Shown here: in pieces, positions 3,772-62,035 of the stretch
Numbering within the stretch: the stretch's first letter is position 1
How the letters are laid out: each line of letters opens with the position of its first letter
Source of the DNA: a phage
Reading direction: 5' to 3' (one strand)
Sequence record: PZ583738.1
DNA: 64,000 nt
Position numbers and translations under genes: made by a program
Notes under the pieces: model-generated
Told to the model about the DNA's origin: nothing
What the model saw: only the letters and a program-made list of their open reading frames with translations
Databases searched by the model: none

Positions 3772-3776
3772 AAATA

Positions 3777-3800
3777 AAGGGACCCGAAGGTCCCTTTTTA
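3777..3800. terminator. bidirectional terminator between rnlB and gene 24
   Basis: aagggacccgaaggtccctt hairpin flanked by A-run and T-run. Confidence 0.6.
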
Positions 3801-5117: not shown

Positions 5118-5162
5118 GTTTACAACCAGATTAAGATAAGACATAATGATTCCATACTGAGT
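5118..5162 (+). promoter_or_regulatory. early promoter (-35 GTTTAC, 18 bp spacer, -10 CATAAT) plus conserved leader cataatgattccatactgag
   Basis: Sigma70-like hexamers; leader repeated at about 45977, 46866 and 47392. Confidence 0.5.
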
Positions 5163-5188
5163 TAACAAACAAAACCTGGAGTTTAAAA

Positions 5189-5470: not shown

Positions 5471-5477
5471 AAACAAG

Positions 5478-5505
5478 AAAGGGACCTCAAGGGTCCCTTT
5501 TTATT
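5478..5505. terminator. bidirectional terminator between ORF 5189-5470 and gene 23
   Basis: aagggacctcaagggtccctt hairpin with flanking A/T runs. Confidence 0.55.
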
Positions 5506-5520
5506 TAACTTAATCTAGGA

Positions 5521-12083: not shown

Positions 12084-12198
12084 AGTAGCCTCAAATCGCG
12101 CACCAGAGCGATTCTGGGACGATTTTATCCGTGTTATGTATAAACACCTTACTTAAAGGTTGCGTGCTCTATAATCGTTTATAGGAGCTTTATGCTTT

Positions 12199-12206
12199 TA
12201 TTTATA
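12199..12206 (-). promoter_or_regulatory. late promoter TATAAATA upstream of the HNH endonuclease gene and gene 19
   Basis: Exact motif in the 18/HNH intergenic region. Confidence 0.45.
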
Positions 12207-12291
12207 ACACGGTATAATGGGTCTAATCTATTCCGTTAAGCAATTACACTCAACCATAATAGGTAAGAGGGGACTTTCATCCCCTAATTTA

Positions 12292-26494: not shown

Positions 26495-26502
26495 ATATTT
26501 AT
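26495..26502 (-). promoter_or_regulatory. late promoter TATAAATA upstream of gene 9
   Basis: Exact motif about 27 nt upstream of gene 9 start. Confidence 0.5.
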
Positions 26503-26506
26503 AGAA

Positions 26507-26531
26507 TAAAAAAGGGACCCGAAGGTCCCTT
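26507..26531 (-). terminator. terminator between gene 8 and gene 9
   Basis: aagggacccgaaggtccctt hairpin with A-run. Confidence 0.5.
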
Positions 26532-26532
26532 G

Positions 26533-39837: not shown

Positions 39838-40510
39838 AATTAATTGCGATTGTGGGTAAAAAACGCAGTGGTAAAGATACGACTGCTGATTATGTTATTA
39901 GTCAAAACGGAACAAAGTGGCAGCTTGCTGGTCCGATTAAAGAAGCGCTTTATAAAGCGTGGATTCGTCAAGACCTGCCACACAATTTGACCCTGGAAAA
40001 TTTTGATGGACAAGGTTACGACCGTGAAAAAACCTTAATAATGAACAACACCGAAGCTTATATTCTTCTGGTTGATGCTCTTGAATGGTTGAAACAACAA
40101 TACAATCTTGACCTTCCGAATCCAGATATGGTTCGTAAAATCATTGAATTTCACACACTAAATAATGTTGAGCCCTGGACAGTTAGACGTTTCATGCAGA
40201 CCCTTGGAACTGATATTGTTTGTACAGAGTTCGACAGCATGTTTTGGATTAAAACTTTTGCATGCGACTATCTTGACAACCTCTATTCTGGATATAAATA
40301 TTACGTTGTCCCAGATGTTCGCCAAAAGAACGAACTTGATTCGCTTCGGGCGATGGGTGCTACAATAATCTTTGTAGAACGCGATGAAGCAAATCATTCT
40401 ACTGATACACACATTACGGAAGCTGGACTTCCACCACTAGCTAGTGACATTGTTATTAAAAACGATGGCACACTCGAAGAACTTTTTGATAAAATTAATA
40501 AGGTAATATA

Positions 40511-40511
<1 letters not shown>
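39834..40511 (+). CDS. 1: deoxynucleoside monophosphate kinase gp1
   Basis: 225 aa; P-loop GKKRSGKDTTADYV matches recalled T4 gp1. Confidence 0.88.
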
Positions 40512-41202
<691 letters not shown>

Positions 41203-41262
41203 TGTACAAATGAGTGTAGGTGCAGTATTATGTTCCTACACCAATGAACAAACGGAGTTAAT

Positions 41263-41595
41263 ATGAACATCAAAACTTACAACGAGTTTTTAGCCGAATC
41301 CGCCATCAATGAGACCAAATCAATTGATGATAGTGAAGGCTCTCTGAAATTTGGTTTAACCAAAAACGCAGATGGTGTTTTCTTTCAGATTGGTAATGAA
41401 CGTTTTCAAACGTCCAAATATTCCAAAGCTGCAGTTGAAGCTGTCCTGAAATCTGGTGGCAAGTGGAAAGGCAAAGAAGGTACTAAAGAAATTGGTATCG
41501 CTGTTGACGGTGGTATGGCTTATTTTAAAATTGGCGATGAACAATTTATTATGTCTGCTCGCGGACGTAAAGAACTGGCAAAACTTTATAAATAA
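41263..41595 (+). CDS. internal protein with capsid-targeting leader (variant MNIKTYNEFLAES)
   Basis: 110 aa; N-terminus matches T4 internal-protein capsid targeting sequence with L-x-E protease site. Confidence 0.6.
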   Translation: MNIKTYNEFLAESAINETKSIDDSEGSLKFGLTKNADGVFFQIGNERFQTSKYSKAAVEAVLKSGGKWKGKEGTKEIGIAVDGGMAYFKIGDEQFIMSARGRKELAKLYK

Positions 41596-41884: not shown

Positions 41885-42127
41885 ATGAAAACTTATCAAA
41901 CATTTATAACAGAATCTTCCCATAGTATGGAAGTTAAACTTGGTCAAGCCCTTGCTGAAGCAGAGCGCCTGTTTGCACGTATCAAAGAACTTGCCGATTC
42001 TGTAGATGCATCATCTTTTAAAGGCGACCAGGGTAAAGTTAAAGCTCTCCTTGCTCTTTGTTCAGACGCGGGTGAAATTGCTAAGAACGGCACCAAGATG
42101 AAAAAACGCCTAGAAGATTTAAAATAA
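41885..42127 (+). CDS. internal protein with capsid-targeting leader (MKTYQTFITES)
   Basis: 80 aa; CTS-like N-terminus. Confidence 0.65.
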   Translation: MKTYQTFITESSHSMEVKLGQALAEAERLFARIKELADSVDASSFKGDQGKVKALLALCSDAGEIAKNGTKMKKRLEDLK

Positions 42128-42175
42128 GTGTACATGATGGGATAACTGTAGTATGATTATCCCATCAACTACTGG
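42128..42175 (+). promoter_or_regulatory. early promoter / stem-loop cassette (PeSL-like): GTGTAC, GGGATAA...TTATCCC inverted repeat over the -10, leader catcaactactggag
   Basis: Repeated cassette, compare 42438, 46472, 57667, 61570. Confidence 0.5.
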
Positions 42176-42182
42176 AGACCAC

Positions 42183-42437
42183 ATGAAAACTTATCAAGAA
42201 TTTATTACTGAATCTGCAAATGCAAAAGTTGAGTTTGCTTATGTTGGTTCGCCGCGTGGCAGTTTTTCCAATGAGGAATTCCGTCGTTCACTGGACAACT
42301 TTATGCAGTTAAGTGCTGAAGTATCGCATGATGGTCGTTATGACATCGTTACTATTAGCGGTTCTGAAGACCTTATCAAAAAGTGGTACAAGCAGAAAGA
42401 TGTTGAGATGCGTTACTATCGTATCCCTAAAAAATAA
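42183..42437 (+). CDS. internal protein with capsid-targeting leader (MKTYQEFITES)
   Basis: Start moved to ATG at 42183 (RBS GGAG upstream, early promoter/stem-loop cassette upstream); N-terminus equals T4 CTS consensus. Confidence 0.7.
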   Translation: MKTYQEFITESANAKVEFAYVGSPRGSFSNEEFRRSLDNFMQLSAEVSHDGRYDIVTISGSEDLIKKWYKQKDVEMRYYRIPKK

Positions 42438-42482
42438 GTGTACTTTTAAATGGGATAGTGTATAATTATCCCATCAACTACT
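42438..42482 (+). promoter_or_regulatory. early promoter / stem-loop cassette (PeSL-like)
   Basis: GTGTAC, 17 bp spacer, TATAAT inside gggatag...ttatccc inverted repeat, leader catcaactactgagg. Confidence 0.5.
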
Positions 42483-42494
42483 GAGGGCCAAAAA

Positions 42495-42716
42495 ATGAAA
42501 ACTTATCAAGAATTTATTAACGAAGCTAAAATGCATGACGAATTGCCGATTCAATCTAAAACTTTTGATGGTACACTGAAGGATTTTAAAAAGTTACCAA
42601 ATGATAAATTGGCAAAACTTACAGGTTCTGTATCTGAAACAGGTGGTAAGGTTACTTTCTCTGCCCGTGGTATTGTCAACCTTAAAAAACTTTTGAAAGC
42701 CGTTGGTGCTGAATAA
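42495..42716 (+). CDS. internal protein with capsid-targeting leader (MKTYQEFINEA)
   Basis: 73 aa; CTS N-terminus; preceded by early promoter/stem-loop cassette. Confidence 0.7.
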   Translation: MKTYQEFINEAKMHDELPIQSKTFDGTLKDFKKLPNDKLAKLTGSVSETGGKVTFSARGIVNLKKLLKAVGAE

Positions 42717-42774
42717 AACAGTTACTGGTCTAGTATATCATAACCTAGACCTATCAAAAAGTGAGGAGAATAAA

Positions 42775-42960
42775 ATGAAACGTTGTGAATTAATTAGAAA
42801 TGTTACTGCCTTTGTTGCTGTTACCACTTTTGGTTTTAGCATGTTTGCTGGCTTTATGTTGAATATGCTTTCAACTTCTGAGAATATAATCTCTTTAGTA
42901 GTTACATTTTTAATTGGTTCAATCTCTTTCGTTATGGATAAAATCTCTAAAGGTGAGTAA
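42775..42960 (+). CDS. small membrane protein (two predicted TM helices)
   Basis: Start at ATG after RBS GAGGAG; hydrophobic segments AFVAVTTFGFSMFAGFML and ISLVVTFLIGSISFV. Confidence 0.5.
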   Translation: MKRCELIRNVTAFVAVTTFGFSMFAGFMLNMLSTSENIISLVVTFLIGSISFVMDKISKGE

Positions 42961-42961
42961 A

Positions 42962-43351
42962 ATGTATAAAGTGTATGCGGATTATCAGGCAAATCCATCT
43001 GAAAAACCAGATTGTCAAATTGGGTGGGCGCATGACACCCTGCTTGAAGCGGTAGATGAAGCTCAAAAATTAGGGTATAGTTATGTAGATATTGTTCAAC
43101 CAAATGGAACAGTTATTACACTTGAAGAATTCAAGAATATCAAAACAAACTTTTTGCTTTTTGCAGGTGATAGCTATTATCCTCGTGGCGGTTATGCTGA
43201 CTTAATCGCAAAGGCTGCGACTGAAGATGAACTGCGTGATATCATTAAAGAAAACGAGAAGAAGCCTTGTTATGGTTCCAACCGTTTTGACTGGTGGCAG
43301 ATTGTTAATGCCAATACGCATACTATTGTTGATGAAGGAACATGCGAATGA
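42962..43351 (+). CDS. hypothetical protein
   Basis: Start at internal ATG (MYKVYADY) with RBS AGGTGAG; 129 aa. Confidence 0.5.
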   Translation: MYKVYADYQANPSEKPDCQIGWAHDTLLEAVDEAQKLGYSYVDIVQPNGTVITLEEFKNIKTNFLLFAGDSYYPRGGYADLIAKAATEDELRDIIKENEKKPCYGSNRFDWWQIVNANTHTIVDEGTCE

Positions 43352-43824
43352 ATATCAAATTTGGTCAGACCATCCCTAAAGGTTATGTGATTGAAATTGA
43401 AACCTGGGAAAATGATGGTGACAACTATAAAACCCAAACGGTATTTGGCGTAGAAGAACAAGAAATCCAACAGTACAAATATATCCTGGAACTTTTCCAT
43501 GGTTCGCATTGCAATAATCGCAATAAATGTGGTAATTCAGAATGGGATGTGGTTAAACACTTGGTTATCGCCCACATTGCATCTGGTGTAAAATCTGGCC
43601 AGTTGACTTATGAATTTTTGGATAAAGTTCTTGGTATCCAAGACTTAGAAGCCTTGCTGAATGATGATGAAGAAGCATACTATTTGAATGAAGCCCTTAC
43701 TGAGCTCCTTGGTATGGCTTGCGAATATGATGGCGATTTCATGCGTGTAATTTCTTATGTTAAGCTATATATAATCGAAGAAGAAATCCGAATCCCATTT
43801 GTTAAAGCGCTTGATATGCTTTAA
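43342..43824 (+). CDS. hypothetical protein
   Basis: 160 aa ORF, start overlaps previous stop. Confidence 0.5.
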   Translation: MRMNIKFGQTIPKGYVIEIETWENDGDNYKTQTVFGVEEQEIQQYKYILELFHGSHCNNRNKCGNSEWDVVKHLVIAHIASGVKSGQLTYEFLDKVLGIQDLEALLNDDEEAYYLNEALTELLGMACEYDGDFMRVISYVKLYIIEEEIRIPFVKALDML

Positions 43825-43944
43825 CAAAAACGCGTTATTATTAATAAGTACCCTCTATTACCAAAGGTTCTTCCCTCAAAGAACCTTTCATAATAGCATG
43901 TGCTATTGTCTAACTTACTTTACTTAATTTTACTTGAGGTGTTT

Positions 43945-44214
43945 ATGTTAGTATTAAAATTAGCTTTTTACGACCCTAAAACAAAGACAACCACTACCAA
44001 ACGTTGCTCTATTTCGTATGAGTGTCAATTTGGCGAAATTCAGCATCCAACAGGCGAAACCTTTATGTCAATTGGTTGTTCAACATTCAATAAAGTCAAA
44101 TTAATACCGTTGGTTAATACGGCGGCTTATCTGGTTGCACCAGAAGAAATGACTTATCATACAATTCAGCATATGGTTAAAGATGATAATGCTCCCGCTG
44201 GATTTGTAATTTAA
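43945..44214 (+). CDS. hypothetical Cys-containing small protein
   Basis: Start at ATG after RBS GAGGTG; 89 aa. Confidence 0.45.
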   Translation: MLVLKLAFYDPKTKTTTTKRCSISYECQFGEIQHPTGETFMSIGCSTFNKVKLIPLVNTAAYLVAPEEMTYHTIQHMVKDDNAPAGFVI

Positions 44215-44219
44215 TTTTA

Positions 44220-44293
44220 GGCCCTGTAGCTCAATTGGTTAGAGCATCCGGCTCATAACTGGCAGGTTTCCGGTTCAAGTCCGGATGGGGCCA
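44220..44293 (+). tRNA. tRNA with CAU anticodon (Met, or Ile if lysidine-modified)
   Basis: Hand-folded cloverleaf: acceptor ggccctg/tggggcc, D-arm gctc-aattggtta-gagc, anticodon loop cTCATAa, T-arm tccgg-TTCAAGT-ccgga, discriminator A. Confidence 0.8.
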
Positions 44294-44295
44294 CC

Positions 44296-44372
44296 CGGGG
44301 TGTAGCTCAATTGTATAGAGCAACGGTCTTCTAAACCGTAGGTTGTGGGTTAGAATCCCACCACCCCGACCA
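44296..44372 (+). tRNA. tRNA-Arg (anticodon UCU), CCA encoded
   Basis: Hand-folded cloverleaf: acceptor cggggtg/caccccg, D-arm gctc/gagc, anticodon stem acggt/accgt with loop cTTCTaa, T-arm gtggg-TTAGAAT-cccac, then ACCA. Confidence 0.85.
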
Positions 44373-44387
44373 ATTACTGAGGATATT

Positions 44388-44627
44388 ATGGTTATTAGTG
44401 AATCATATGCAGTTATGGATATAACCAGCAACGAGCTGGTTTATAGCTTTGATGAGTTTGACGAAAATGATAAACAAGTCCCATGGTTTGCATTAACTGC
44501 TCCACCTGAGCATAATAAATATCTAAGTTTCCCGACTCGCAGACTAGCAACAAATTTTATGGAATTCAATGACCTTGATTCCAATTATAAGGTTGTTAAA
44601 GTCAAATTAGCTATTACAATTGAATGA
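44388..44627 (+). CDS. hypothetical protein
   Basis: Track ORF starts at a non-ATG codon inside tRNA-Arg; first ATG downstream of the tRNA is at 44388 (MVISESYAVMD...). Confidence 0.45.
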   Translation: MVISESYAVMDITSNELVYSFDEFDENDKQVPWFALTAPPEHNKYLSFPTRRLATNFMEFNDLDSNYKVVKVKLAITIE

Positions 44628-44639
44628 GAAACCGGGTCG

Positions 44640-52302: not shown

Positions 52303-52989
52303 ATGAACGGTCCGAAAACTTTTAATTCTAAAGCTCGTGCAGTAGGCGGATTTGCAGGTCATATTTCTAATGATGATATTAAAAACGAGCCTATGTTCTT
52401 TAACTGTGATTTGAATTTTGCTGCACAAAATGGCGGTCCTATTACTCGTAGCTTTATTACTAATCTCCCTGATGAGTGGAAAGCCGTTGAATGTGTATTC
52501 GATTCTCGGGTTCATATGTTGATGCCTGGTTGGTATCCTGCTATCCCAGGTTATCACCATGATGATGTGCCACGCCCGGATATTCCGGTTGGTCAACACT
52601 TTATTACTGCAGGGCAACCTGATTATGATAATCCTCGTTACCATTCTGAACATATTCTTGGTCTTGTTAACGCTGATGTGTGTCCTACTTATTTTGCAAC
52701 CGGAACTGCGCAATTTAGTCAGATTCCTGAAGGCGAACTTATCTATCGCCAGTGGCATAAAGAAGTTCTGGAAAAAATTGAGTCCAATGAATTAACCAAG
52801 TGGGATGCTCCTGACCGCACGTTGCTCCAGTTTGATTGGCAGACATGGCATACAGGTTCTCGCGCAGTAAGTAATGGTTGGCGCTGGTTTGGTCGTGTGT
52901 CTCGTAATACCGACCGTGTTAAAAAGATTACAAATGAAATCCGTGTTAATGCTCAAGTATATCTGGAATTCCCTATGGAGGGATGGTAA
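52303..52989 (+). CDS. hypothetical protein
   Basis: 228 aa; His/Asp-rich patch PGWYPAIPGYHHDDVPRPD; early promoter-like cassette and leader upstream. Confidence 0.5.
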   Translation: MNGPKTFNSKARAVGGFAGHISNDDIKNEPMFFNCDLNFAAQNGGPITRSFITNLPDEWKAVECVFDSRVHMLMPGWYPAIPGYHHDDVPRPDIPVGQHFITAGQPDYDNPRYHSEHILGLVNADVCPTYFATGTAQFSQIPEGELIYRQWHKEVLEKIESNELTKWDAPDRTLLQFDWQTWHTGSRAVSNGWRWFGRVSRNTDRVKKITNEIRVNAQVYLEFPMEGW

Positions 52990-53573
52990 TGCTGTATGAA
53001 CCCGGTTGTATGGGTGTTGATGTAAACTTCATCCGCCGGGCAGAAAATGCAGGTATAATTGTATCAAGAGACGAATTTATGATTACCAAAAAATATTGGG
53101 CGAACCTTGATGATGGTGATGAAGGAATCAAGGTGGAAAATGTTGATTGGTCGCGATGCAATCGTCATGTGAAAGAGCTTTTAATTAAGGAATATAAAAT
53201 GGGATACATCATTAATGGGCATCAACCAGAACCACTCAAAGAACAGACACCCGACCCATTAATTTCTTATAGCAAGAAATATGGATTTCGTACCTGGAGT
53301 GATGAATTTGATAAATTAATTTGTTCCAGGTTTTATGCCTGGGCTGGAATCTTATTTTTACCATTCCTGTGGTTTTTCCTGACAGGTAAAAATGAAGCAC
53401 CTGTAGCTGTAATGGGCGCGTGCTTTTCTACTGCTCTTGCTGGACTTATTGCATCATTTTTATGGACTATGGTTATTGAAGTACCTTTTCGTATTTCTAA
53501 AGTTAAAAAGGTGTACGACGATATCACTAAGAAAAATACATTGAACTCTTTTATTGAGGAATGCCGTAAATGA
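52983..53573 (+). CDS. hypothetical membrane protein
   Basis: 196 aa; C-terminal TM helices; ends ...NSFIEECRK (junction cassette). Confidence 0.5.
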   Translation: MVMLYEPGCMGVDVNFIRRAENAGIIVSRDEFMITKKYWANLDDGDEGIKVENVDWSRCNRHVKELLIKEYKMGYIINGHQPEPLKEQTPDPLISYSKKYGFRTWSDEFDKLICSRFYAWAGILFLPFLWFFLTGKNEAPVAVMGACFSTALAGLIASFLWTMVIEVPFRISKVKKVYDDITKKNTLNSFIEECRK

Positions 53574-53806
53574 GTATTGCGATTTATATTAAATCTGAGT
53601 CATGTGATTCTTATCTGTATTCCTATGATACAGGCACATCAGAAGAGAAAATCAAAGAAGATTTAGAAAGTGATTTGGATATGTTCCGACCGATTTCTGA
53701 ATACAGAATTCAAACTTCTGATAGTGAAAGCCCTTCATTGGAAAATAGACTTGAATTTTTAATGAGTGATATTTTTAACCAATCATGGAAACGTGACGAT
53801 GAGTAA
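53570..53806 (+). CDS. hypothetical small acidic protein
   Basis: 78 aa; ATGA-coupled start. Confidence 0.45.
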   Translation: MSIAIYIKSESCDSYLYSYDTGTSEEKIKEDLESDLDMFRPISEYRIQTSDSESPSLENRLEFLMSDIFNQSWKRDDE

Positions 53807-54257
53807 GAAAAACAAGGTGAAAGAATTATCGGCTGGCATTATTTTCATGACTGAAGATAAAGAGTTATTCATGGGTCGTGTGACCGGTTCTCGTAAACCA
53901 GGTATGCCAGCACACAAATGGGACATCCCTAAGGGTCATGTGGAAGCTGGTGAATCCCCAATTGAAGCGGCTATTCGTGAAACCGAAGAAGAAACTGGGT
54001 TTACCCAATACGACCCGGCATTCTTAAAAGACCTCGGTGAGTTCCGTTATTCAGATAACAAAAACCTTCACCTGTTTTTGTATACGGTTCCTGTCGAGCA
54101 TGAGCAATTCAGACACAGTAAATGCTCTGCCTATCATACCTTCCCGGATGGCAGTTCGGTCCCAGAGTTTGATGCATTTGCTCTGATTAAACCGAGCCAA
54201 TGGCAGTACGTGATGGGCAAATCGATGTACAAGGTAATGACTCAAATTTTCGGATAA
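53799..54257 (+). CDS. nudE: Nudix hydrolase
   Basis: Start at ATG MSKKNK; Nudix box GHVEAGESPIEAAIRETEEETG; position next to lysozyme e as in T4. Confidence 0.85.
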   Translation: MSKKNKVKELSAGIIFMTEDKELFMGRVTGSRKPGMPAHKWDIPKGHVEAGESPIEAAIRETEEETGFTQYDPAFLKDLGEFRYSDNKNLHLFLYTVPVEHEQFRHSKCSAYHTFPDGSSVPEFDAFALIKPSQWQYVMGKSMYKVMTQIFG

Positions 54258-54283
54258 TAAATACTCCTATATAAGGGGGTATT

Positions 54284-54778
54284 ATGAATATATTCGAAAT
54301 GTTACGCATAGATGAAGGTTGTAAGTTGGATTTGTATAAAGATACTGAAGGCTATTGGACCATTGGTATCGGGCAACTGATAACTAAGAACCCATCAAAA
54401 GATGTTGCTCGTGCTGAGCTCGACAAGCTCATGGGTCGCGTCTGCAATGGTCGCATAACCCAACACGAAGCTGAAACATTGTTTAATCGTTCGGTCGAAA
54501 AAGCTAAAGCTGGAATCTTGAGACATCCTGTCTTAAAACCTGTTTATGATGTACTGGATGAAGTTCGTCGCTGTGCACTCATTAATATGGTATTCCAGAT
54601 GGGTGTTGCTGGGGTAGCTGGTTTTCCTAAGGGTATGCGACTTCTGAAGGCTAAATCATGGGAAGCTGCTGCTAAGGAACTAGCTGACTCAAGATGGTAT
54701 AAAGTCCAGACTCCGAATAGGGCAAAACGAGTTATCGAAACTTTCCGTACTGGAACTTTTGACGCATACAAAAGGTAA
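54284..54778 (+). CDS. e: endolysin (T4 lysozyme family)
   Basis: 164 aa; [12 protein letters not shown]...[13 protein letters not shown]...[12 protein letters not shown]...TPNRAKRVI matches recalled T4 lysozyme including catalytic E11/D20 context. Confidence 0.95.
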
Positions 54779-54781
54779 AAT

Positions 54782-55051
54782 ATGAAAACGTATCAAGAAT
54801 TTTTGGCTGAATCTGTATTAAATGAATCAGATGAAAGCCGCATGGCATTTTTAGCTAAGAAAGAAGGCTTTGAGTTTACTTCTATTAAAAAAGTTAATGG
54901 AACTTCATTTAAAGTTGGTGATTGGACCTTTGGTAACAAAGGAAGTGGCCAGTGGCAAATTGTAGATAAATCTGGTAAAGAAGTGGATTATTTGTTTAAT
55001 CAGAAATTGGGTGATATCGCTAAACTTATGGGTCAATACTCTAAGAAATGA
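54782..55051 (+). CDS. internal protein with capsid-targeting leader (MKTYQEFLAES)
   Basis: 89 aa; CTS N-terminus; position between e and denV like T4 ipIII/ipII. Confidence 0.7.
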   Translation: MKTYQEFLAESVLNESDESRMAFLAKKEGFEFTSIKKVNGTSFKVGDWTFGNKGSGQWQIVDKSGKEVDYLFNQKLGDIAKLMGQYSKK

Positions 55052-55100
55052 TGTACATCTCCAAATGATAGGGTTATAATGACCCTATCAACTACGGAGA
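55051..55100 (+). promoter_or_regulatory. early promoter / stem-loop cassette upstream of denV (variant inverted repeat tagggt...accctat)
   Basis: ATGTAC, 18 bp spacer, TATAAT, leader atcaactacggag. Confidence 0.45.
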
Positions 55101-55106
55101 ACAAAC

Positions 55107-55523
55107 ATGACACGTATTAACTTAACCCTGGTATCTGAACTTGCTGACCAACACCTTATGGCTGAATATCGTGAGCTTCCTCGCGTGTTTGGTGCGGTTC
55201 GCAAACATGTACAAAATGGTAAAAAGGTTTCTGACTTTAAAATCCCATCATCTTTTCTTTTAGGGACTGGTCATGTCACCTTCTTTTATGATAAACTTTT
55301 GTTCCTTAAAAACCGCCATCAAGAACTTATTGCGGAATGTTTAAAGCGAGGGTTTAACATAAAAGATATTTCTACCCAAGATTTAAATGATATTCCTGAT
55401 GAATGGAAGAATGATTATCAACCATCAATCTGGTCAATTGAAATCAGTCAAGCCAGACTGAATGAGAAAATTTCTCAAAAGCCTACCTGGTACAAATACT
55501 ATGGGAAAGCAGTGTACGCTTAA
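55107..55523 (+). CDS. denV: endonuclease V (pyrimidine dimer DNA glycosylase)
   Basis: 138 aa; [34 protein letters not shown]... near-identical to recalled T4 EndoV. Confidence 0.95.
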
Positions 55524-55571
55524 CTAAAAAGGTTGTATACTGATTTTATCAACCAAACAATAGAATATAAA

Positions 55572-55871
55572 ATGTTAACTTATAAAGAATTTATCACAGA
55601 AGCTAAAGCTCCTAAAGCATTTCAAATCGGAGTCCAAGGTAATTTAGACCAACAATATGTTGATGCTATTGTAGCAAGCCTCGGTAAACAGGGCGTGCAA
55701 GTGGATTCGGTTGATTTTACTAAAGGCAATACTTTTAATATTGTTACATCTAAAGGTTCTTTAGCTAAAGTTAAAAAGGCCTTTGGCGTAGCACAAGCAT
55801 ATGAAATTGACCATTCTGAATTAGAAAATAAAGGTCGCCAGAACACAATTAAAGGTTCTGGTTCTTTCTAA
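55572..55871 (+). CDS. internal-protein-like protein with CTS-like leader (MLTYKEFITEA)
   Basis: Start at internal ATG of track ORF; CTS-like N-terminus. Confidence 0.6.
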   Translation: MLTYKEFITEAKAPKAFQIGVQGNLDQQYVDAIVASLGKQGVQVDSVDFTKGNTFNIVTSKGSLAKVKKAFGVAQAYEIDHSELENKGRQNTIKGSGSF

Positions 55872-56034
55872 TAAAGGCAAGCCGACCCTCTCCTCATGAA
55901 CGTCGCGTCCTCTGAGTGATGGACCTTTCCCTACCTGTAATAAGGTCGAGCCCAAGTGCGGTAAAGGGTTTACATACGGATACATGGGCGAATTATGTGC
56001 CAAGGAATGGCCCCACCACTTAAAAGAGACAATT

Positions 56035-56580
56035 ATGAAAACGTTTTTAACCGGTAGTTATCTATCCCTGATGAATGCTTTTGCAAACCATTCTGATGCT
56101 AGAGTAGAACACATTTGTAATAGTGGGTTTTATGTACCCGATTCACAAACCTTGTTTAAAGAATGCTGCACCTTAAAACTTGATGGTGGGCGCCAATCTG
56201 GTAAAACTAAAGCAGTATCCATTTTTGCTACGGAATGGTTAGCTGATGGCGGCTCTATTGTTATTTTGTCTAATAACACGGCATATGCTAATGTTTCGGC
56301 TACTGCAATCCGAAAGGAATATTTTAATAACCATACAGAAAGTATTAAGCACCGTTTGTACACTGATTCTGTTCGTAGTTTTATTGGTAACACTGCATGC
56401 AAATTCCGTGGATTATCACTTTCACGGGTTCTGTATATAATTGATGAGCCTGTTAAAACACCTGATATGGATAAGATTTATGATGCCCACATAAAGGTTG
56501 TGCATTATTGCTGTCGTGCATCATGTGAAGAAACCAATCAAACCACACGTCCTCTGTTCTTTGTGATAGGAATGCAATGA
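56035..56580 (+). CDS. P-loop NTPase (Walker A GGRQSGKT, Walker B LYIIDE)
   Basis: Start at ATG MKTFLTGS; Walker motifs visible; Cys-rich C-terminus (HYCCRASCEE). Confidence 0.55.
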   Translation: MKTFLTGSYLSLMNAFANHSDARVEHICNSGFYVPDSQTLFKECCTLKLDGGRQSGKTKAVSIFATEWLADGGSIVILSNNTAYANVSATAIRKEYFNNHTESIKHRLYTDSVRSFIGNTACKFRGLSLSRVLYIIDEPVKTPDMDKIYDAHIKVVHYCCRASCEETNQTTRPLFFVIGMQ

Positions 56581-56876
56581 TGACCCATGAAGAGCTTTTT
56601 GACCAAATCTATTTTATTCCAAAGGTTAGGTCAGAAGATTTCGTAAAGAATTTTGAAATCTTTAATAAAGCAAATTTCTTTGAGTATGTGTTTTTGTCTG
56701 GGCCTTTTATTGGGTCCAGATTTCGTTGCACTGCTCCGAGTATTCGCTTGATGAAGTTGGTTCCTTACTTTACTCTGGAATTTATTTCTGGACCGTGTAA
56801 GGGTATTATCACTCGTAGCCTCCTGACCTATGACCAGGATGTGCGATTAATTAGTGACTGGAAAAAATATGTCTAA
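56577..56876 (+). CDS. hypothetical protein
   Basis: 99 aa, ATGA-coupled. Confidence 0.45.
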   Translation: MMTHEELFDQIYFIPKVRSEDFVKNFEIFNKANFFEYVFLSGPFIGSRFRCTAPSIRLMKLVPYFTLEFISGPCKGIITRSLLTYDQDVRLISDWKKYV

Positions 56877-57083
56877 ATTGACAATTGAAGGCTCTGATGA
56901 AGCTCTGAAAAGATTTGTTGAATGGTTTAATGGGCCAGGTGAACAAGACTTTCTGGAAGTTTGGGATGGTGGGCAATGGAACGGTAAAGAAATTGTTTAT
57001 CCGACTACCTATATCTCCGTACAAGGTTGTCCTGATGGCCTTCGTTTGGTAGAATATGATATCGCAACTGGCGAGGAAGTGAA

Positions 57084-57087
<4 letters not shown>
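56869..57087 (+). CDS. hypothetical protein
   Basis: Start at ATG MSKLTIEG overlapping previous stop. Confidence 0.45.
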
Positions 57088-57666
<579 letters not shown>

Positions 57667-57667
<1 letters not shown>

Positions 57668-57712
57668 TGTACAAGCAGGTTGAAATGAGTTATGATTATC
57701 CCATCAAACAAA
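57667..57712 (+). promoter_or_regulatory. early promoter / stem-loop cassette upstream of regB
   Basis: GTGTAC, 18 bp spacer, TATGAT, leader ttatcccatcaaacaaaaggag. Confidence 0.45.
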
Positions 57713-57723
57713 AGGAGATAATC

Positions 57724-58182
57724 ATGACTACTATCGATTCAAGTGTTTACATTCGCCGCAATAAACTTCGTCGCATTTTTGAAACGGAGTTCCTCAAAAT
57801 TAATAATGCTATCAACAAGGCTTGTAAAGAAGCAGGCCTTGAGGCATTCTTCATTAAGTACAGTCCACACCTGTTGGACCGTGCAATCCAACGTGAAATT
57901 GATGAACAATATGTTTTTGACTTGTTTGGAAAAATCACACCACATGTAAAAGAAATCGTTGAATTCCTGGAGATGAAACCACTCCCGGAAGTTGAAGCAC
58001 AAATTGACCCGAATGTGAACTACCGTCCACTTCGTCTGGAAATCACAGACAAGAACCTATGGTTAGGAATGACAGTTAACCCAGCTCTTCCTGGGAAGTC
58101 TCCGACCATGTGTTGTCGTATGGCGTTTGTTAACTCTAATCGTCTGGAAGGAAAAATTAGCACAAAAGTGATTTATATCTAA
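57724..58182 (+). CDS. regB: RegB endoribonuclease
   Basis: Start at MTTIDSSV; ...IRRNKLRRIFETEF...KYSPHLLDRAIQREIDEQYVF...LRLEITDKNLWLG...CRMA matches recalled T4 RegB. Confidence 0.88.
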   Translation: MTTIDSSVYIRRNKLRRIFETEFLKINNAINKACKEAGLEAFFIKYSPHLLDRAIQREIDEQYVFDLFGKITPHVKEIVEFLEMKPLPEVEAQIDPNVNYRPLRLEITDKNLWLGMTVNPALPGKSPTMCCRMAFVNSNRLEGKISTKVIYI

Positions 58183-58192
58183 TGAGGAATTC

Positions 58193-58735
58193 ATGAAAAA
58201 AGTAATCGCCACCTTACTATTGACAGTTAGTATGTCTGCCCATAGCGTAGAGCCTACTTTCAGTAATGAACAAATGGGGAACCTCCAATATGCTTATGCG
58301 TTTGGAGAACAGTTCCAGAAAAATGGTAAGTACAAAGAAAATCCGCACCAACATAATGGTTTGGGATATATCATGGCTGGTTTAGCCTGGCAGGAAAGTT
58401 CTGCTGGGATTAATACTGGATTAAATAAAGATAAGCATCATGCATATGGTATATTCCAAAATTATCTTCCAACCGTGCGCGAACGCGTGAAACAGGTTGG
58501 GTGGACAATGACAGATAAAGAAATAATCAAGATGATAAGCAAGAGAGAGAACAGCGCACGCTGGGCTTATATTGAGCTTTCATACTGGTTGAATATTCAT
58601 AAGGGGGATATAAGGAAAACACTATCATCATATAACGCAGGGTGGAATGTGAAAGCTGGTAATACGTATGCTTCACAGGTCCTAGAAAAAGCTAACTACT
58701 TAAAATCACGAGGCCTATTAAAAACGGTGGATTAA
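58193..58735 (+). CDS. secreted lytic-transglycosylase-like protein (SLT-type E-S...G-x-x-Q motif)
   Basis: 180 aa; signal peptide MKKVIATLLLTVSMSAHS; AWQESSAG and HAYGIFQ resemble SLT catalytic region. Confidence 0.55.
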   Translation: MKKVIATLLLTVSMSAHSVEPTFSNEQMGNLQYAYAFGEQFQKNGKYKENPHQHNGLGYIMAGLAWQESSAGINTGLNKDKHHAYGIFQNYLPTVRERVKQVGWTMTDKEIIKMISKRENSARWAYIELSYWLNIHKGDIRKTLSSYNAGWNVKAGNTYASQVLEKANYLKSRGLLKTVD

Positions 58736-58737
58736 AA

Positions 58738-59097
58738 ATGGTAAGAGTTATCACTTTAGCCATAGGGTTAGTATTCAGCATGGGAGGAATAGCTTCAGTA
58801 CAGAGCGATGACAACAACAGCATCATAGAATATGCAACGAGGACGGCTAAAGATTATTGCGCAGCAAGCAATGTGGATTGTGTAATCCAGTTCAGTGCCA
58901 AGCTCACCGCAGCCTATAAAGATGGCCAAAATGATGTTGAACATACGCTTTTGAAAAAGAATGTATTATCCAACAAATATGAAAAGAAATTATTTGAAAT
59001 GGATTGCATTCTATCAAGTGCAAAATATAAGGCGGCCTGCACCAGTATGGTTGACAGGTTAGTGGATTCATATAATAGAGGATTGAACTCTAAATGA
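58738..59097 (+). CDS. hypothetical secreted/periplasmic protein
   Basis: 119 aa; N-terminal signal peptide MVRVITLAIGLVFSMGGIASVQS; four Cys. Confidence 0.5.
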   Translation: MVRVITLAIGLVFSMGGIASVQSDDNNSIIEYATRTAKDYCAASNVDCVIQFSAKLTAAYKDGQNDVEHTLLKKNVLSNKYEKKLFEMDCILSSAKYKAACTSMVDRLVDSYNRGLNSK

Positions 59098-59567
59098 TTA
59101 CCCAGTATATTAAGGGCGATATCGTCGCCCTCTTTCTTAGTGGTAAAAACATTGCACATGGTTGCAATTGCTTCCATACAATGGGTTCAGGCGTAGCTGG
59201 TCAGTTGGCGAAGGCTTATCCAAGGATTTTAGAAATAGACAAAACCTCAACCGACTATGGTTACAGAGGAAAACTCGGTGATATGTCTATTGTTTTCAAA
59301 TATTCCCGAGGTCCGTCAACTTGCTTTAATCTTTACACCCAATATGAACCAGGACCAAATCTTGATTATCATGCTTTAGTAAATTGTATGGTAGAATTAA
59401 ATCGAGTCCTGAGTGAAGGAACACTATTCCGACCAGTGGTTTATATCCCACGGATTGGATGTGGTATTGCAGGTGGAGATTGGGAAAAGGTCTCTATGTT
59501 AATTGATATTTTTACCCCTGACATTGATTTGATAGTGGTGGATTATGAGCCAAGCCCGAATTCTTAA
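59094..59567 (+). CDS. macro-domain protein (putative ADP-ribose binding/hydrolase)
   Basis: 157 aa; GCNCFHTMGSGVAGQL and PRIGCGIAGGDWEKV match the two glycine-rich macro-domain signature blocks. Confidence 0.65.
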   Translation: MITQYIKGDIVALFLSGKNIAHGCNCFHTMGSGVAGQLAKAYPRILEIDKTSTDYGYRGKLGDMSIVFKYSRGPSTCFNLYTQYEPGPNLDYHALVNCMVELNRVLSEGTLFRPVVYIPRIGCGIAGGDWEKVSMLIDIFTPDIDLIVVDYEPSPNS

Positions 59568-59751
59568 AACGGCCAAATGTGAAAAATGTGAATGGCCAGT
59601 AATCGCAGCTTTGTGCAACGATGAAATGGAATGTGAATTTGATTACTGGTGGTACTGTTCTAATAAAGGATGTTCTAATCATAAGGGTGAAGGTTTTCAT
59701 TCTGGTTATTGCGAACATCCTAAATTTGTGCGATATGGGGAACCGAAATGA
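59545..59751 (+). CDS. Cys-rich small protein (possible zinc binding)
   Basis: 68 aa with 9 Cys (CEKCEW, CNDEMEC, CSNKGC, YCEHP). Confidence 0.45.
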   Translation: MSQARILKTAKCEKCEWPVIAALCNDEMECEFDYWWYCSNKGCSNHKGEGFHSGYCEHPKFVRYGEPK

Positions 59752-59933
59752 GTTTAAGCATTAGTCAGAAAAGTAGATTATTTGAGCTTATCCATGAGCT
59801 TTTGGATGAGCATACGGAAGCAAATGCTTTTTATGATGAATATGGCCCGATAGATGCCGACCATCAGGAAGAATTTGCCAATCGATTTGATGCGAAAGAA
59901 AACGAATTAATAGCTTATGTGAATACGCTTTAA
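59748..59933 (+). CDS. small acidic helical protein
   Basis: 61 aa; C-terminal ...KENELIAYVNTL similar to ORFs 61841-62035 and 62035-62217. Confidence 0.45.
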   Translation: MSLSISQKSRLFELIHELLDEHTEANAFYDEYGPIDADHQEEFANRFDAKENELIAYVNTL

Positions 59934-59942
59934 GAAGGTGAT

Positions 59943-60515
59943 ATGGCGAGTTTAATTTATCATTACGCAGCAATGAATGCAGGCAAAACAGCTTCATTGC
60001 TGACTGCAGCTTATTCCTATAAAGAGCGTGGAATGAGTGTGCTTTTGCTAAAACCTGTTATTGATAATCGGGACTCGGAAGGCGAAATTAAATCACGCAT
60101 CGGTATTAGCCAGGAAGCAAACCTGGTAACGGCCGACATGAACCTGTTTGAATTCTATAAATGGGCCGAGTCTCAAAAGGATATCCATTGTGTCCTGGTC
60201 GATGAAGCTCAATTTTTGTTACCAGAGCAAATTGACCAGTTAGCTCAAGTGGTTGATAATTACAATATCCCCGTTATGTGTTACGGGCTAAGAACAGATT
60301 TTCGGGGTCAATTATTTCCCGGTTCGGCCAGACTTCTGGCTATTTCGGATAAACTGGTTGAATTAAAGGGCGTCTGTCATTGCGGCCGGAAAGCAACCAT
60401 GACCGCTCGAGTAATCGACGGTGCTGCTGTAAAGGACGGCGAGCAAGTATTGGTCGGTGGGAATGAATCGTACGTATCTTTGTGCAGAAAACATTGGCTC
60501 GAATTAACAAGCTGA
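59943..60515 (+). CDS. tk: thymidine kinase
   Basis: 190 aa; MASLIYHYAAMNAGKTASLL P-loop, VCHCGRKATMTAR zinc ribbon, LCRKHW; matches recalled T4 Tk. Confidence 0.93.
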   Translation: MASLIYHYAAMNAGKTASLLTAAYSYKERGMSVLLLKPVIDNRDSEGEIKSRIGISQEANLVTADMNLFEFYKWAESQKDIHCVLVDEAQFLLPEQIDQLAQVVDNYNIPVMCYGLRTDFRGQLFPGSARLLAISDKLVELKGVCHCGRKATMTARVIDGAAVKDGEQVLVGGNESYVSLCRKHWLELTS

Positions 60516-60522
60516 GGTTCGC

Positions 60523-60798
60523 ATGGTATACAAGGTTTGGACGTATATCTCTATTTTGATATTCCTGGTTTTGGTTTTTGTTCCTATGCAACAGGACCAG
60601 GAAAGGTATGAGCGCGAAGTCGAAATCGTTGCAAGTACCTATCACTCGTTCAACAAAGAGTGCCCGAATAAAAACGGAATAAGCCTGCAACAAGCGTACT
60701 ATTTGTCAACGATTACCAGCCCAAAACAACGGGTCTGGGTCGAACGTAATTTTGCAAGTTTATTTTCAGAGTACTGCTTTAATTTTAAAAGATTATAA
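60523..60798 (+). CDS. small membrane protein (rI.-1 position)
   Basis: 91 aa; N-terminal TM ISILIFLVLVFV. Confidence 0.5.
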   Translation: MVYKVWTYISILIFLVLVFVPMQQDQERYEREVEIVASTYHSFNKECPNKNGISLQQAYYLSTITSPKQRVWVERNFASLFSEYCFNFKRL

Positions 60799-60870
60799 AT
60801 ACAGTTACTAACTAGTATTCCGCTATGTTAAGGCTGCAAAGCGTAATCATGACCAACAATAGGAGTCCTT

Positions 60871-61164
60871 ATGGACCTTATTCGAGGACTTTCATTAAGT
60901 CTAATAATCCTGGGCTGTTTAGGCCCAAATCTGTCCTCTGCAACAGAGGGGAAGTTTACCCAATATGCAGATAGTGCGATGAAGATTTATTCGCAATTCA
61001 AAGAACCAAGCGTGCACCAATCCGAACAGTTCTGGGCGTTTATCAAGACTGAATGGAACAACAAAAGCCAATGCGAAACTGAAATTACCTGCAAAAGCGA
61101 TGGTAAAGCTGCGGCGAGAGAGTACGCTAAATTAATGAAGGTAAAATTGGAAGATGAAATTTGA
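60871..61164 (+). CDS. rI: lysis inhibition regulator RI (antiholin)
   Basis: 97 aa (same as T4 RI); signal-anchor N-terminus; QSEQFWAFIKTEW and C-terminal AAAREYAKLMKVKLEDE resemble recalled T4 RI; adjacent to tk. Confidence 0.75.
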   Translation: MDLIRGLSLSLIILGCLGPNLSSATEGKFTQYADSAMKIYSQFKEPSVHQSEQFWAFIKTEWNNKSQCETEITCKSDGKAAAREYAKLMKVKLEDEI

Positions 61165-61537
61165 TGATTTCGTAACGGGTCGTGGGTCTGAGGTGGATTC
61201 ATATATTGGGTGGTTGTTAGTCTCTTTGGCTTATTTTAAGTCCGCCCATCTTGAAACCAAAAGTTACGCCCGCCATAAAGCTTATGATTTCTACTTCACA
61301 GAAATCCAAGGTCCACTCGACCAGTTCAGTGAGCAATGGTTAGGTTACAGCGGGAAACAATACAAAGCTGCATTACCGTCCGCCTCGGACTTGCCGAAAG
61401 ATACAATTTTGTTTTTAGATGAAATGATTAAAAGCTCGGAAAGAGTCTATAAAGTTGTACCCAAGGCTATTCAATCGACTCTGGACGATATCGTTGGAGT
61501 TTTCTTTCAGACTAAGTATCTGTTAACACTAGAGTAA
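61154..61537 (+). CDS. hypothetical protein (rI.1 position)
   Basis: 127 aa, followed by intrinsic terminator. Confidence 0.5.
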   Translation: MKFDDFVTGRGSEVDSYIGWLLVSLAYFKSAHLETKSYARHKAYDFYFTEIQGPLDQFSEQWLGYSGKQYKAALPSASDLPKDTILFLDEMIKSSERVYKVVPKAIQSTLDDIVGVFFQTKYLLTLE

Positions 61538-61544
61538 TTCAAAA

Positions 61545-61570
61545 GGTCTGCCTTCGGGTGGACCTTTTTT
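61545..61570 (+). terminator. intrinsic terminator after ORF 61154-61537
   Basis: ggtctgccttcgggtggacc hairpin followed by tttttt. Confidence 0.6.
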
Positions 61571-61625
61571 CATTTAGAGGTTTACAACACCATAAAAAGG
61601 GTGTACTATTATCCCATCAACTACT
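61570..61625 (+). promoter_or_regulatory. early promoter / stem-loop cassette
   Basis: GTTTAC ... gtgtactattatcccatcaactactgagg. Confidence 0.4.
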
Positions 61626-61637
61626 GAGGAGAACACA

Positions 61638-61841
61638 ATGAGAATTAAAAATATCAAGATTGATGCAGTTAATACTGGTGATGAGGTTGTTATCTATCTT
61701 AATGATTATGCAATCTTTATGGACAGTGCCACTGATGAAGAAGTGGTTGAACTCTTACAGAAAGCTCCATTTGAACTGTGTGAAGAAGATGCTACCCATC
61801 TTTCATCAGCAATTTTCTCATTATCATATGTGGTGGAATAA
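61638..61841 (+). CDS. hypothetical small acidic protein
   Basis: 67 aa after early promoter/stem-loop cassette. Confidence 0.5.
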   Translation: MRIKNIKIDAVNTGDEVVIYLNDYAIFMDSATDEEVVELLQKAPFELCEEDATHLSSAIFSLSYVVE

Positions 61842-62035
61842 TGATTACTTTAGAACAAGCAAAGAGAATCTCTGCATTAGTTGCAGCAATTCGTGAAGCA
61901 GATGATGAAATGGCAGCTTATGCTTGGGCAGCCCCATCTGTATCTGGCGGTAAAGAATTAGAAGCAAAAGTTGGCAATGCTCTGGAAGCATTGGATATGT
62001 TCCTTGACGAAATTATTGATTACAGGACTGCATAA
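61841..62035 (+). CDS. small helical protein
   Basis: 64 aa, ATGA-coupled. Confidence 0.45.
   Translation: MITLEQAKRISALVAAIREADDEMAAYAWAAPSVSGGKELEAKVGNALEALDMFLDEIIDYRTA

Follow-up and report, generated by a model that had tools for sequence, protein, structure and literature searches.

Repeated cassettes of probable early promoters, some with embedded stem-loops, at accessory-gene junctions of a T4-type phage

What is the promoter-like element that recurs between the accessory genes of the phage sequence PZ583738.1, and what could the stem-loops embedded in it do? A preliminary description of the 64,000-nt stretch of this record analyzed here (the window) had noted at least six intergenic cassettes, each with a -35 hexamer, a -10 hexamer within an inverted repeat, and a conserved leader, and had likened them to the promoter early stem-loop (PeSL) elements of T4-type phages, taken to be mobile cassettes that shuffle genes. 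Positions 42000-62000 are 92-96% identical to the Gaprivervirus phages DK-13, vB_EcoM_RZ, VR26, and TH44 (Straboviridae, Tevenvirinae), and the annotation of Gaprivervirus relatives marks the region as the T4-type hyperplastic region, with the gene order 57B, ip genes, trna.4/.3, tRNAs, e.x genes, nudE, e, denV, ip, vs.x genes, regB, vs, tk, rI, mobD.x, all on the plus strand. The same annotation agrees with the earlier placement of the cassettes around ip genes, denV, regB, and open reading frames (ORFs) of unknown function. We put the probability at roughly 80% that the repeats are early promoters dependent on sigma-70 and joined to the leader and ribosome-binding site of the next gene, that is, the T-even version of PeSL cassettes, with hairpin and recombination roles that we infer.

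The window contains 14 cassettes and one degraded copy (table 1). An upstream stop codon in an A-rich tract is followed by a -35 element G(T/G)TTAC, a spacer of 17-18 nt, a -10 element TAnnAT, about 7 nt to the predicted start site, a leader of about 20 nt with a Shine-Dalgarno (SD) sequence, and an ATG. In 9 of the 14 the stop codon is -1 to 12 nt away from the -35, and SD and ATG follow in all; features of an early sigma-70-type promoter are likewise found in 14/14, their activity being predicted from sequence. An nhmmer profile built from the 14 copies recovers them, all on the plus strand, at E values from 1.8e-12 to 8.3e-07, with the next match at E = 0.07 and the best minus-strand match no better than E = 1.6; in leave-one-out searches 12/14 were regained at E < 1e-3, those at 41202 and 55512 being marginal. 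The leader CATCAACTACTGAGG (three or fewer mismatches) occurs seven times in the window against 1.46 +/- 1.18 expected, a number reached in 0/100 shuffles. Thirteen of the cassettes lie within 41-62 kb and none in the late-gene block at 6-40 kb, and every copy is at a gene junction. A scan for the generic sigma-70 consensus found 61 matches in the window against 59.6 expected; as this is no enrichment, the signal lies in the extended T4-specific motif, and the scan was dropped as evidence. A candidate at 2122 (GTTTAC-N18-TAAGAT) was also dropped, as the profile hidden Markov model (HMM) gave it no support.

Unbiased repeat finding in the window returns the cassette as families D6 and D9, and also exposes, beside the sub-family already described (A), a second one (B) with the leader CATAATGATTCCATACTGAGTTAC at 5118, 45953, 46841, and 47367; the site at 46473 is a hybrid of the two. 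Leaders are accordingly of two sorts, the ATCAACTACTGAGG type and the longer ATACTGAGTTACC type. All seven sites named earlier hold a plus-strand cassette, with -35 elements starting at 42128, 42438, 46473, 52246, 55051, 57667, and 61580; the position given for the last, 61570, is the end of the T-run of an upstream terminator. The conserved leader, described as CATCAACTAC, does recur beyond expectation, but not at 46472, where the leader is that of sub-family B. The inverted repeat at the -10 was likewise seen correctly at 42128, 42438, 46472, 52246, and 55051, but not at 57667 or 61570, where only a 3' half TATCCC is present. The copies are real and their number was underestimated, given 14 plus the degraded 42717-42775, with the one at 41202 missed; published PeSL sets also include "degraded" members. 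The likeness to PeSLs itself held, with an AT-rich tract containing a stop codon, an early promoter, an SD, and an ATG, in a hyperplastic region and near indels, and with a stem-loop at the -10 in six of the 14 copies. Taken as a whole, the preliminary observation is real, highly nonrandom, and partly confirmed, and its interpretation as PeSLs is supported.

The complete genome of the close relative TH44 yields 39 cassettes with the same profile, 39/39 on one strand and 39/39 with an ATG-initiated ORF no more than 70 nt downstream; 17 are inside the 40-70 kb region. Because the copies are this numerous, share one strand, and are each followed by an ORF, the cassette is the phage's general early promoter with its leader (about 39 per genome) and no separate mobile element. 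T4 has the same architecture at the orthologous ipI, ipII, ipIII, denV, trna.4, e.6-e.8, regB, and mobD.5. The cassette at 61580 is the positional orthologue of the T4 mobD.5 promoter, which has been detected by primer extension (PMC1702504), and orthology to the T4 regB and mobD.5 promoters backs the predicted promoter activity. The T4 RefSeq record contains no promoter features, and literature searches for T4 start-site maps and for hairpins in the denV or regB leader returned nothing relevant. The leader at 46473 matches exactly the RegB/S1 target consensus GGAGRAYARAA (PMC1702504), and GGAG also occurs in several other cassette leaders; both are consistent with early-mRNA biology.

Table 1. 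Cassettes in the window, with hexamers, leaders, and embedded structures. P, spacer shuffles; fold, free energy in kcal/mol and z score; E, nhmmer profile.
Position	Strand	-35	-10	Leader	ATG	Structure	Fold	E	Type and context
5118-5191	+	GTTTAC 5118-5123	CATAAT 5142-5147	ATACTGAGTTAAC..GGAG	5189	no hairpin	0 (core), z +1.1	1.5e-09	B; sole cassette outside the hyperplastic region; repeat families D1/D3
41202-41265	+	GTGTAC 41202-41207	TATTAT 41226-41231		41263	GTGTAGG 41214-41220 / CCTACAC 41235-41241, 7 bp, P 0.029	-14.8, z -4.23	2.3e-07 (leave-one-out 0.03)	-35 overlaps stop codon of 57B-like ORF
42128-42185	+	GTGTAC 42128-42133	TATGAT 42152-42157	ATCAACTACTGGAG	42183	TGATGGGATAA 42135-42145 / TTATCCCATCA 42157-42167, 11 bp, P 0.0005	-15.3, z -3.95	3.4e-10	A; before ip-like gene
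42438-42497	+	GTGTAC 42438-42443	TATAAT 42461-42466	ATCAACTACTGAGG	42495	ATGGGATA 42450-42457 / TATCCCAT 42467-42474, 8 bp, P 0.0115	-12.6, z -4.38		A; before ip gene 42495-42716
42717-42778	+	remnant GTTACT, spacing broken		..GTGAGGAGAATAAAATG		GGTCTAG / CTAGACC			degraded; before trna.4-like ORF
45953-46037	+	GTGTAC 45953-45958	CATAAT 45977-45982		46035	no -10 hairpin		1.8e-12	B; intrinsic terminator AGCCCGCAATGCGGGCT+T6 upstream at 45894-45916 (terminator scan)
46473-46545	+	TTTTAC 46473-46478 (A-type)	TATAAT 46496-46501	ATACTGAGTTACC...GGAGAATAAAATG (B-type)	46543	TGGGATAAT 46486-46494 / ATTATCCCA 46500-46508 (A-type), 9 bp, P 0.001	-16.1, z -3.66		hybrid
46841-46915	+	ATGTAC 46841-46846	CATAAT 46865-46870		46913	absent	0	8.3e-07	B
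47367-47465	+	GTATAC 47367-47372	CATAAT 47391-47396	long	47463	GC-rich stem AGGGGG..CCCCCT with -35 in its loop			B; before e.6-like gene
50392-50452	+	GTGTAC 50392-50397	TATCAT 50416-50421	GTCAACTAATGAGG	50450	no hairpin	-2, z -0.36	1.2e-08	A-like
52246-52305	+	GTGTAC 52246-52251	CACAAT 52270-52275		52303	GTGGGACTAT 52258-52267 / ATGGTCCCAC 52274-52283, one U.G pair, P 0.0055	-17.3, z -4.50		variant stem
55051-55109	+	ATGTAC 55051-55056	TATAAT 55075-55080		55107	TGATAGGGT 55066-55074 / ACCCTATCA 55082-55090 (inner arms), 9 bp, P 0.0005	-14.5, z -4.79		denV; -35 overlaps stop of ip-like ORF 54782-55051
55512-55574	+	GTGTAC 55512-55517	TATACT 55536-55541			-35 region pairs with -10 region, CAGTGTAC / GTATACTG		3.5e-07 (leave-one-out 0.89)	marginal; in 3' end of denV, before ip-like ORF 55572-55871
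57667-57728	+	GTGTAC 57667-57672	TATGAT 57691-57696		57724	no -10-spanning stem; GTTATGATTATC 57689-57700 / GATAATCATGAC 57717-57728, 12 bp, helix-shuffle P < 0.003	-17.3, z -4.78		regB
61545-61640	+	GTTTAC 61580-61585	TACTAT 61604-61609	ATCAACTACTGAGGAG	61638	-10 hairpin not significant	z -1.15	3.1e-09	mobD.5-like; preceded by intrinsic terminator GGTCTGCC..GGTGGACC+T6 at 61545-61570

With the cassettes taken to be promoters, do they also take part in the exchange of accessory genes? In comparisons with DK-13, TH44, TH40, and VR26, 9 of the 13 junctions with a cassette coincide with a break in colinearity, compared with 14 of the 44 without one (odds ratio 4.8, P 0.019), and in three cases the event is visible at the nucleotide level, two flanking cassettes in one phage corresponding to one chimeric cassette in another. 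The ip gene 42495-42716 sits between the cassette at 42438 and the degraded one at 42717 in both the window and DK-13; TH44 and VR26 have at this site a single chimeric cassette, with the crossover in the common TGAGG. VR26 and TH40 lack the ORF 46543-46839 and join the promoter and hairpin of 46473 to the leader of 46841, and the e.6-like gene of VR26 combines the leader of 47367 with another promoter and hairpin (GGGAACAT/ATGTTCCC). Different genes have also exchanged their cassettes: VR20 has an A-type cassette before a denV whose protein is 100% identical, one T4-like locus (L022) has an ipIII-type promoter ahead of denV, and others (L104-108) have a T4 denV-type cassette ahead of regB. 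Homologous recombination between cassettes would insert, delete, and swap the genes they flank, and is proposed because stretches of about 60-90 nt recur nearly unchanged, and in one orientation, at intervals of 0.3-3 kb.

The cassettes could instead resemble each other from common functional constraint alone, the breaks coinciding with them since genes move as whole units. The presence of 39 copies per genome in TH44, as expected of a general early promoter, would agree with this, as would the 14 of 23 junction-level breaks that fall at cassette-free junctions and the insertions 51593-52243 and 54782-55051, which end in a cassette -35 hexamer or AT-rich tract on one side and have no cassette on the other. 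Constraint would not, however, readily account for crossovers within shared cassette sequence in three exact configurations of two cassettes against one chimera, for the hybrid at 46473, for identical cassettes before different genes and different cassettes before an identical denV, or for the 4.8-fold enrichment of breakpoints, and we consider it unlikely. The preliminary description was thus right that gene gain and loss are linked to the cassettes, whereas their mobility is a matter of comparison among genomes. It had also named enrichment at gene boundaries, compensatory change in the stems (see below), and gene content among relatives as checks, and all three speak in its favor.

Six small ORFs (starts 41604, 41885, 42183, 42495, 54782, and 55572) share the N-terminus MKT(Y/F)(Q/N/K)EF(I/F/L), similar to that of the T4 internal head proteins, and the repeat therefore continues past the cassette to cover the first ~35 nt that are translated; several colinearity breaks (41892, 42229, and 55606) fall just past this shared start. 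A leader-only partial cassette (CCAATTACTGAGGATATTATG) without promoter lies at 44368-44390, directly 3' of tRNA-Arg, and a second at 50611-50633; both resemble the "half PeSLs" of Comeau 2014.

What, then, of the hairpins? An inverted repeat spanning the -10 is present in six of the 14 cassettes (41202, 42128, 42438, 46473, 52246, and 55051), with stems of 7-11 perfect pairs (spacer-shuffle P 0.0005 to 0.029) that fold as RNA with -12.6 to -17.3 kcal/mol (z -3.7 to -4.8). The remainder include one hairpin over the translation initiation region (TIR; 57667), one GC stem over the -35 (47367), one pairing of -35 with -10 (55512), and two cassettes preceded by a canonical terminator (45953 and 61580). 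Rfam has no family for the cassette hairpins. At the same position the window has four unrelated arm pairs (GGGATAA/TTATCCC, GTGTAGG/CCTACAC, GTGGGAC/GTCCCAC, and TGATAGGGT/ACCCTATCA), and T4 has the same arrangement with still other arms at ipI, ipII (13 bp), ipIII, denV, trna.4, e.6, and e.7. Among 94 unique cassettes collected from the window, four Gapriverviruses, T4, and 36 T4-like loci of IMG/VR, 49 reach a helix score of at least 8, compared with 6.8% of spacer shuffles, and 36 unique helices in relatives use about a dozen arm sequences. Their non-Watson-Crick positions are G.T in 19 cases and A.C in one, against 638:730 in composition-matched shuffles, and at 52246 the sole differences among orthologues give G.U or restore Watson-Crick pairs. 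Since the mismatches are G.T and hardly ever A.C, selection appears to act on a single-stranded structure of the sense strand and not on duplex DNA; the asymmetry points to RNA as the simplest candidate.

The location of the stems is informative as well. The start site predicted for each cassette lies at or beyond the 3' arm (about 7 nt past the -10), so the hairpin would be present solely in read-through transcripts begun upstream. Of the TH44 promoters that abut an upstream ORF (-35 within 15 nt of the stop codon of a co-oriented ORF), 14 of 24 have a self-contained hairpin, against 1 of 14 others (Fisher P 0.0019), and in the window all six hairpin cassettes obey this rule, their stop codons being -1 to 12 nt away. 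Such placement suits a function at the boundary between cistrons in read-through RNA: the stems would act in the sense-strand RNA as a 3' boundary structure of the abutting upstream cistron, where they would either block 3' exonucleases or attenuate weakly, and may also insulate the next start region by keeping it unpaired.

The original PeSL proposal of a "composite promoter-terminator", in which the stem-loops terminate or attenuate upstream transcripts, would make use of the same position. It has direct precedent, one RB49 stem-loop having lowered lacZ expression to the same extent as rrnB T1 (Arbiol 2010, PMC2839356), and it would explain both why the hairpins come directly after upstream stop codons and why none of the six cassettes preceded by a canonical terminator has a self-contained hairpin, as expected of alternatives. 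The six stems of the window, however, lack a T-run and are absent from the terminator scan, and a terminator role is thus unsupported by their sequence; they are AT-rich, unlike the polyG/polyC stem tested in RB49, and Arbiol et al. themselves termed the T-even stems "weaker" (PMC2839356). Termination is therefore as unlikely an explanation as constraint was for the shuffling.

A different relation between promoter and hairpin is seen at regB and denV. In the window regB cassette, the -10 and discriminator pair with a stretch that covers the AUG and the final G of the SD (table 1). At the denV promoter of diverse T4-like phages, a CTCC 1-3 nt past the -35 pairs with the SD GGAG, and the helix is extended by sequences that differ yet remain complementary (TCTCCTGTA/TACAGGAGA in T4, CTCCGTTTG/CAAACGGAG, TCCTCCAAG/CTTGGAGGA, TCTCCTGTG/CACAGGAGA, and a 13-bp version); in some other clades the anti-SD arm comes directly after the -10. 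The denV cassette of the window has an outer anti-SD pairing of this kind (TCTCC 55058-55062 with GGAGA 55096-55100), stacked outside the inner hairpin. For the covariation analysis of denV, only the arms were aligned, anchored a priori on CTCC and GGAG; a full-length MAFFT alignment from promoter to ATG was discarded, as varying loop lengths put the SD out of register. In the arm alignment 75.9% of cells pair against 61.5% in shuffles, 36 cells are doubly changed against 17.2 +/- 2.9 (0/500 shuffles), and the covariation score is 0.385, compared with 0.147 shuffled and at most 0.155 in slid registers. The regB set (42 loci from a profile query, where a single-protein query gave 8) has 33 doubly changed cells against 12.0 +/- 2.9 (0/500 shuffles) and a score of 0.281, compared with 0.100 shuffled and no more than 0.060 slid. 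The helix exists in at least eight versions among regB orthologues and in at least five among those of denV; regB of the window, with its arm from the -10 and discriminator, has a different arrangement. Compensatory change thus strongly supports the predicted pairing of SD and AUG at regB, and at denV in relatives. The masking 5' arms are located within the spacer or within the -10 and discriminator, upstream of the putative start (7 nt past the -10), and the predicted unpaired probability of SD and AUG falls from 0.71 in the gene's own transcript to 0.22 in read-through RNA for T4 regB, from 0.71 to 0.36 for T4 denV, and from 0.58 to 0.33 for regB of the window. At regB in the window, and at the regB and denV genes of many T4-like phages, the arm inside the promoter would thus pair with the SD and AUG; translation of read-through RNA masked in this way would be poor, and full translation would be open only to RNA started at the proximal early promoter.

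Could all the hairpins mask the downstream start in read-through RNA, as an early-promoter analogue of the switch known from T4 e, soc, 49, and I-TevI? The strong covariation at denV and regB and the 12-bp helix over the window regB AUG would be expected of such a general switch, but in hairpins of the ip, trna.4, 41202, and 52246 types the 3' arm stops 8-12 nt before the SD, the SD and AUG are as open as in shuffled-promoter controls or more so, and a significant TIR helix is found in only one of the 14 window cassettes (regB). Accessibility and helix tests led us to reject the idea for 12 of the 14, and as a general account it is slightly less probable than either alternative above. That the palindromes act in DNA, as protein operators, cruciforms, or recombination signals directing exchange to the cassettes, is very improbable, for although a dimeric regulator might in principle recognize a palindrome centered on the -10, arm sequences are many and unrelated, with loops of 3 to 14 nt, and offer no single protein site, the strand-asymmetric preference for G.T over A.C is unexpected for duplex recognition, the crossovers observed are in the leader and not the stem, and the arms are too short for stable cruciforms.

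The combined proposal, that these early promoters double as the 5' strand of an RNA hairpin confined to read-through RNA, with anti-SD or anti-AUG arms at regB and denV and with -10 hairpins as the 3' boundary of the upstream ORF, is tentative, its chances being in our judgment slightly short of even. Several points count against it or against the promoter and shuffling interpretation as a whole. Three of the 14 cassettes (5118, 46841, and 50392) carry no structure of any kind, and so a cassette can do without the hairpin; the missing T-runs (the 3' flank of all six stems is CAACTAC or similar) and the omission of the stems from the terminator scan also belong here. The G.T/A.C asymmetry represents perhaps 6-8 independent events, is weaker in the regB set (10:5), and includes some G.T pairs from the TGn/-10 region, where constraint has other causes. 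The thresholds of the abutting-ORF rule were set after the data had been seen, and TH44 is a close relative of the window. A 3' barrier or insulator role of the self-contained hairpins is suggested by position and analogy, and the accessibility difference they make is a nonsignificant trend. The outer pairing at the window denV is 5 bp long and not significant alone (P 0.14). The breakpoint enrichment is modest and comes from four relatives, and the edges of BLAST segments tend to end at conserved cassettes under any mechanism. The start sites, finally, are placed by the geometry of the -10.

The analysis returned a number of further features. Repeat family D11 (..TTTGCTTCA..N12..TATAATGG), at 2635-2672, 12188-12225, and 40482-40519 on the plus strand, resembles the MotA-dependent middle promoters of T4, TGCTT being the MotA box, some 12 nt ahead of the -10; the top noncassette match of the profile HMM (E 0.07) is at 2645-2677. 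Family D7 consists of near-identical intrinsic terminators (AAAGGGACC-loop-GGTCCCTTTTT) at 2046-2089, 3765-3808, 5468-5511, and 26500-26543. A GC-rich hairpin (AGGGGGCTTTGCCCCCT, 48062-48079) between the e.6-like gene and the next ORF, directly before the SD, is terminator-like on the minus strand only, according to the terminator scan. The GC-rich 237-nt gap 44628-44864 after two tRNA genes folds as a whole with z -3.37, has no Rfam family, and is blank in the annotation of relatives; 44623-44743 are 87.7% identical over 122 nt to T4 rnaD (the small stable "species 2" RNA), and the remainder may be a diverged rnaC. Three small neighboring ORFs (49325-49615, 49625-49906, and 49900-50112), apparently tandem paralogues, have a 33-nt repeat at their 3' ends (49588-49620, 49879-49911, and 50085-50117), and TH44 and VR26 have some 245-250 nt extra at 50128-50135, possibly one further copy. 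In four jumbo-phage denV loci (L027, L029, L031, and L033, on IMG/VR contigs of about 345-380 kb), a TTGAC-type promoter has its -35 overlapped by a G+C-rich hairpin with T-run (e.g., GGGTTGACTTCGGTCAGCCCTTTTT), about 50-75 nt upstream of denV (locus position 1501), much like the RB49-style PeSL class.

The cassettes were correctly recognized as an element of a known kind, here in another genus, and that they add one more T-even genus, Gaprivervirus, to the proposed mechanism of accessory-gene shuffling is unsurprising. For annotation the set is of use, as it points out in each genome about 39 early promoters together with true start codons; it also helps to explain the diversity of ip genes. 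Less expected is that promoter DNA would encode an RNA arm that separates read-through from promoter-proximal transcripts: if true, this would extend the classic translational control of T4 from late to early promoters and explain why the spacer and discriminator of T4 early promoters are conserved beyond the needs of RNA polymerase. Neither early-promoter masking at regB or denV nor the abutting-ORF rule was reported in the searchable literature, most older T4 papers being outside it; an early-promoter sequence serving as covariation-supported anti-SD or anti-AUG arm, together with the abutting-ORF hairpin rule, may thus be new.

How does the element compare with those already described? PeSLs were defined by a stop codon in an AT-rich tract, -35 and -10 boxes, a stem mostly between the boxes or overlapping the -10, and SD and ATG (Arbiol 2010, PMC2839356). 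"PeSL-like sequences" with T4 early promoters and weaker AT-rich stems were seen at two T-even IP loci by Repoila et al. 1994, as relayed in PMC2839356, and going by that account the loci (57B-ipI and e-ipIII-ipII-denV) are the same as here. These and the PeSLs of T4 and PST share with our set the T4-type early promoter, AT-rich stems of variable size, the order of stop codon, AT-rich tract, -35, -10, SD, and ATG, and the association with replacement of ip genes and ORFs. The motif as a whole matches the T4/PST consensus TTTACW-N17-TAYWAT (Comeau, Arbiol & Krisch 2014, PMC4122927), but most of the present cassettes have TGTACW and not TTTACW at the -35, and several of their -10 boxes (TATGAT, CATAAT, and CACAAT) fall outside TAYWAT; the legend of that paper puts the PST stems "just upstream of the promoter", while those described here span the -10, and the phage belongs to a different genus. 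The PeSLs of RB49 and phi1 (PMC2839356) are likewise cassettes of promoter, stem-loop, and SD, with the stem most common between the boxes or over the -10, located in hyperplastic regions, flanking ORFans, and with crossovers within the cassettes; RB49, however, has near-perfect TTGACA/TATAAT promoters and polyG/polyC stems shown to terminate, in contrast to the weaker stems without T-run described here, and Arbiol et al. class the T-even elements as analogues, not homologues (PMC2839356). The early promoters of T4 (Hinton 2010, PMC2988021) have the same "UP/-35/TGn/-10" composition with extra conserved positions, very strong recognition by sigma-70, and orientation with the early genes; that review treats the promoters only, leaving embedded RNA hairpins and the conserved leader undiscussed. 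The nearest parallel to regB and denV is given by T4 e, soc, 49, and I-TevI, whose SD or AUG pairs with an upstream strand in the longer transcripts only, RNA from an internal promoter lacking the 5' strand and being translatable (Uzan & Miller 2010, PMC3014915). By analogy the logic at regB and denV would be the same; but the internal promoter of the T4 genes is late (TATAAATA) and parts early from late expression, and because that of regB and denV is an early sigma-70 promoter, they would form a variant and not a member of this family.

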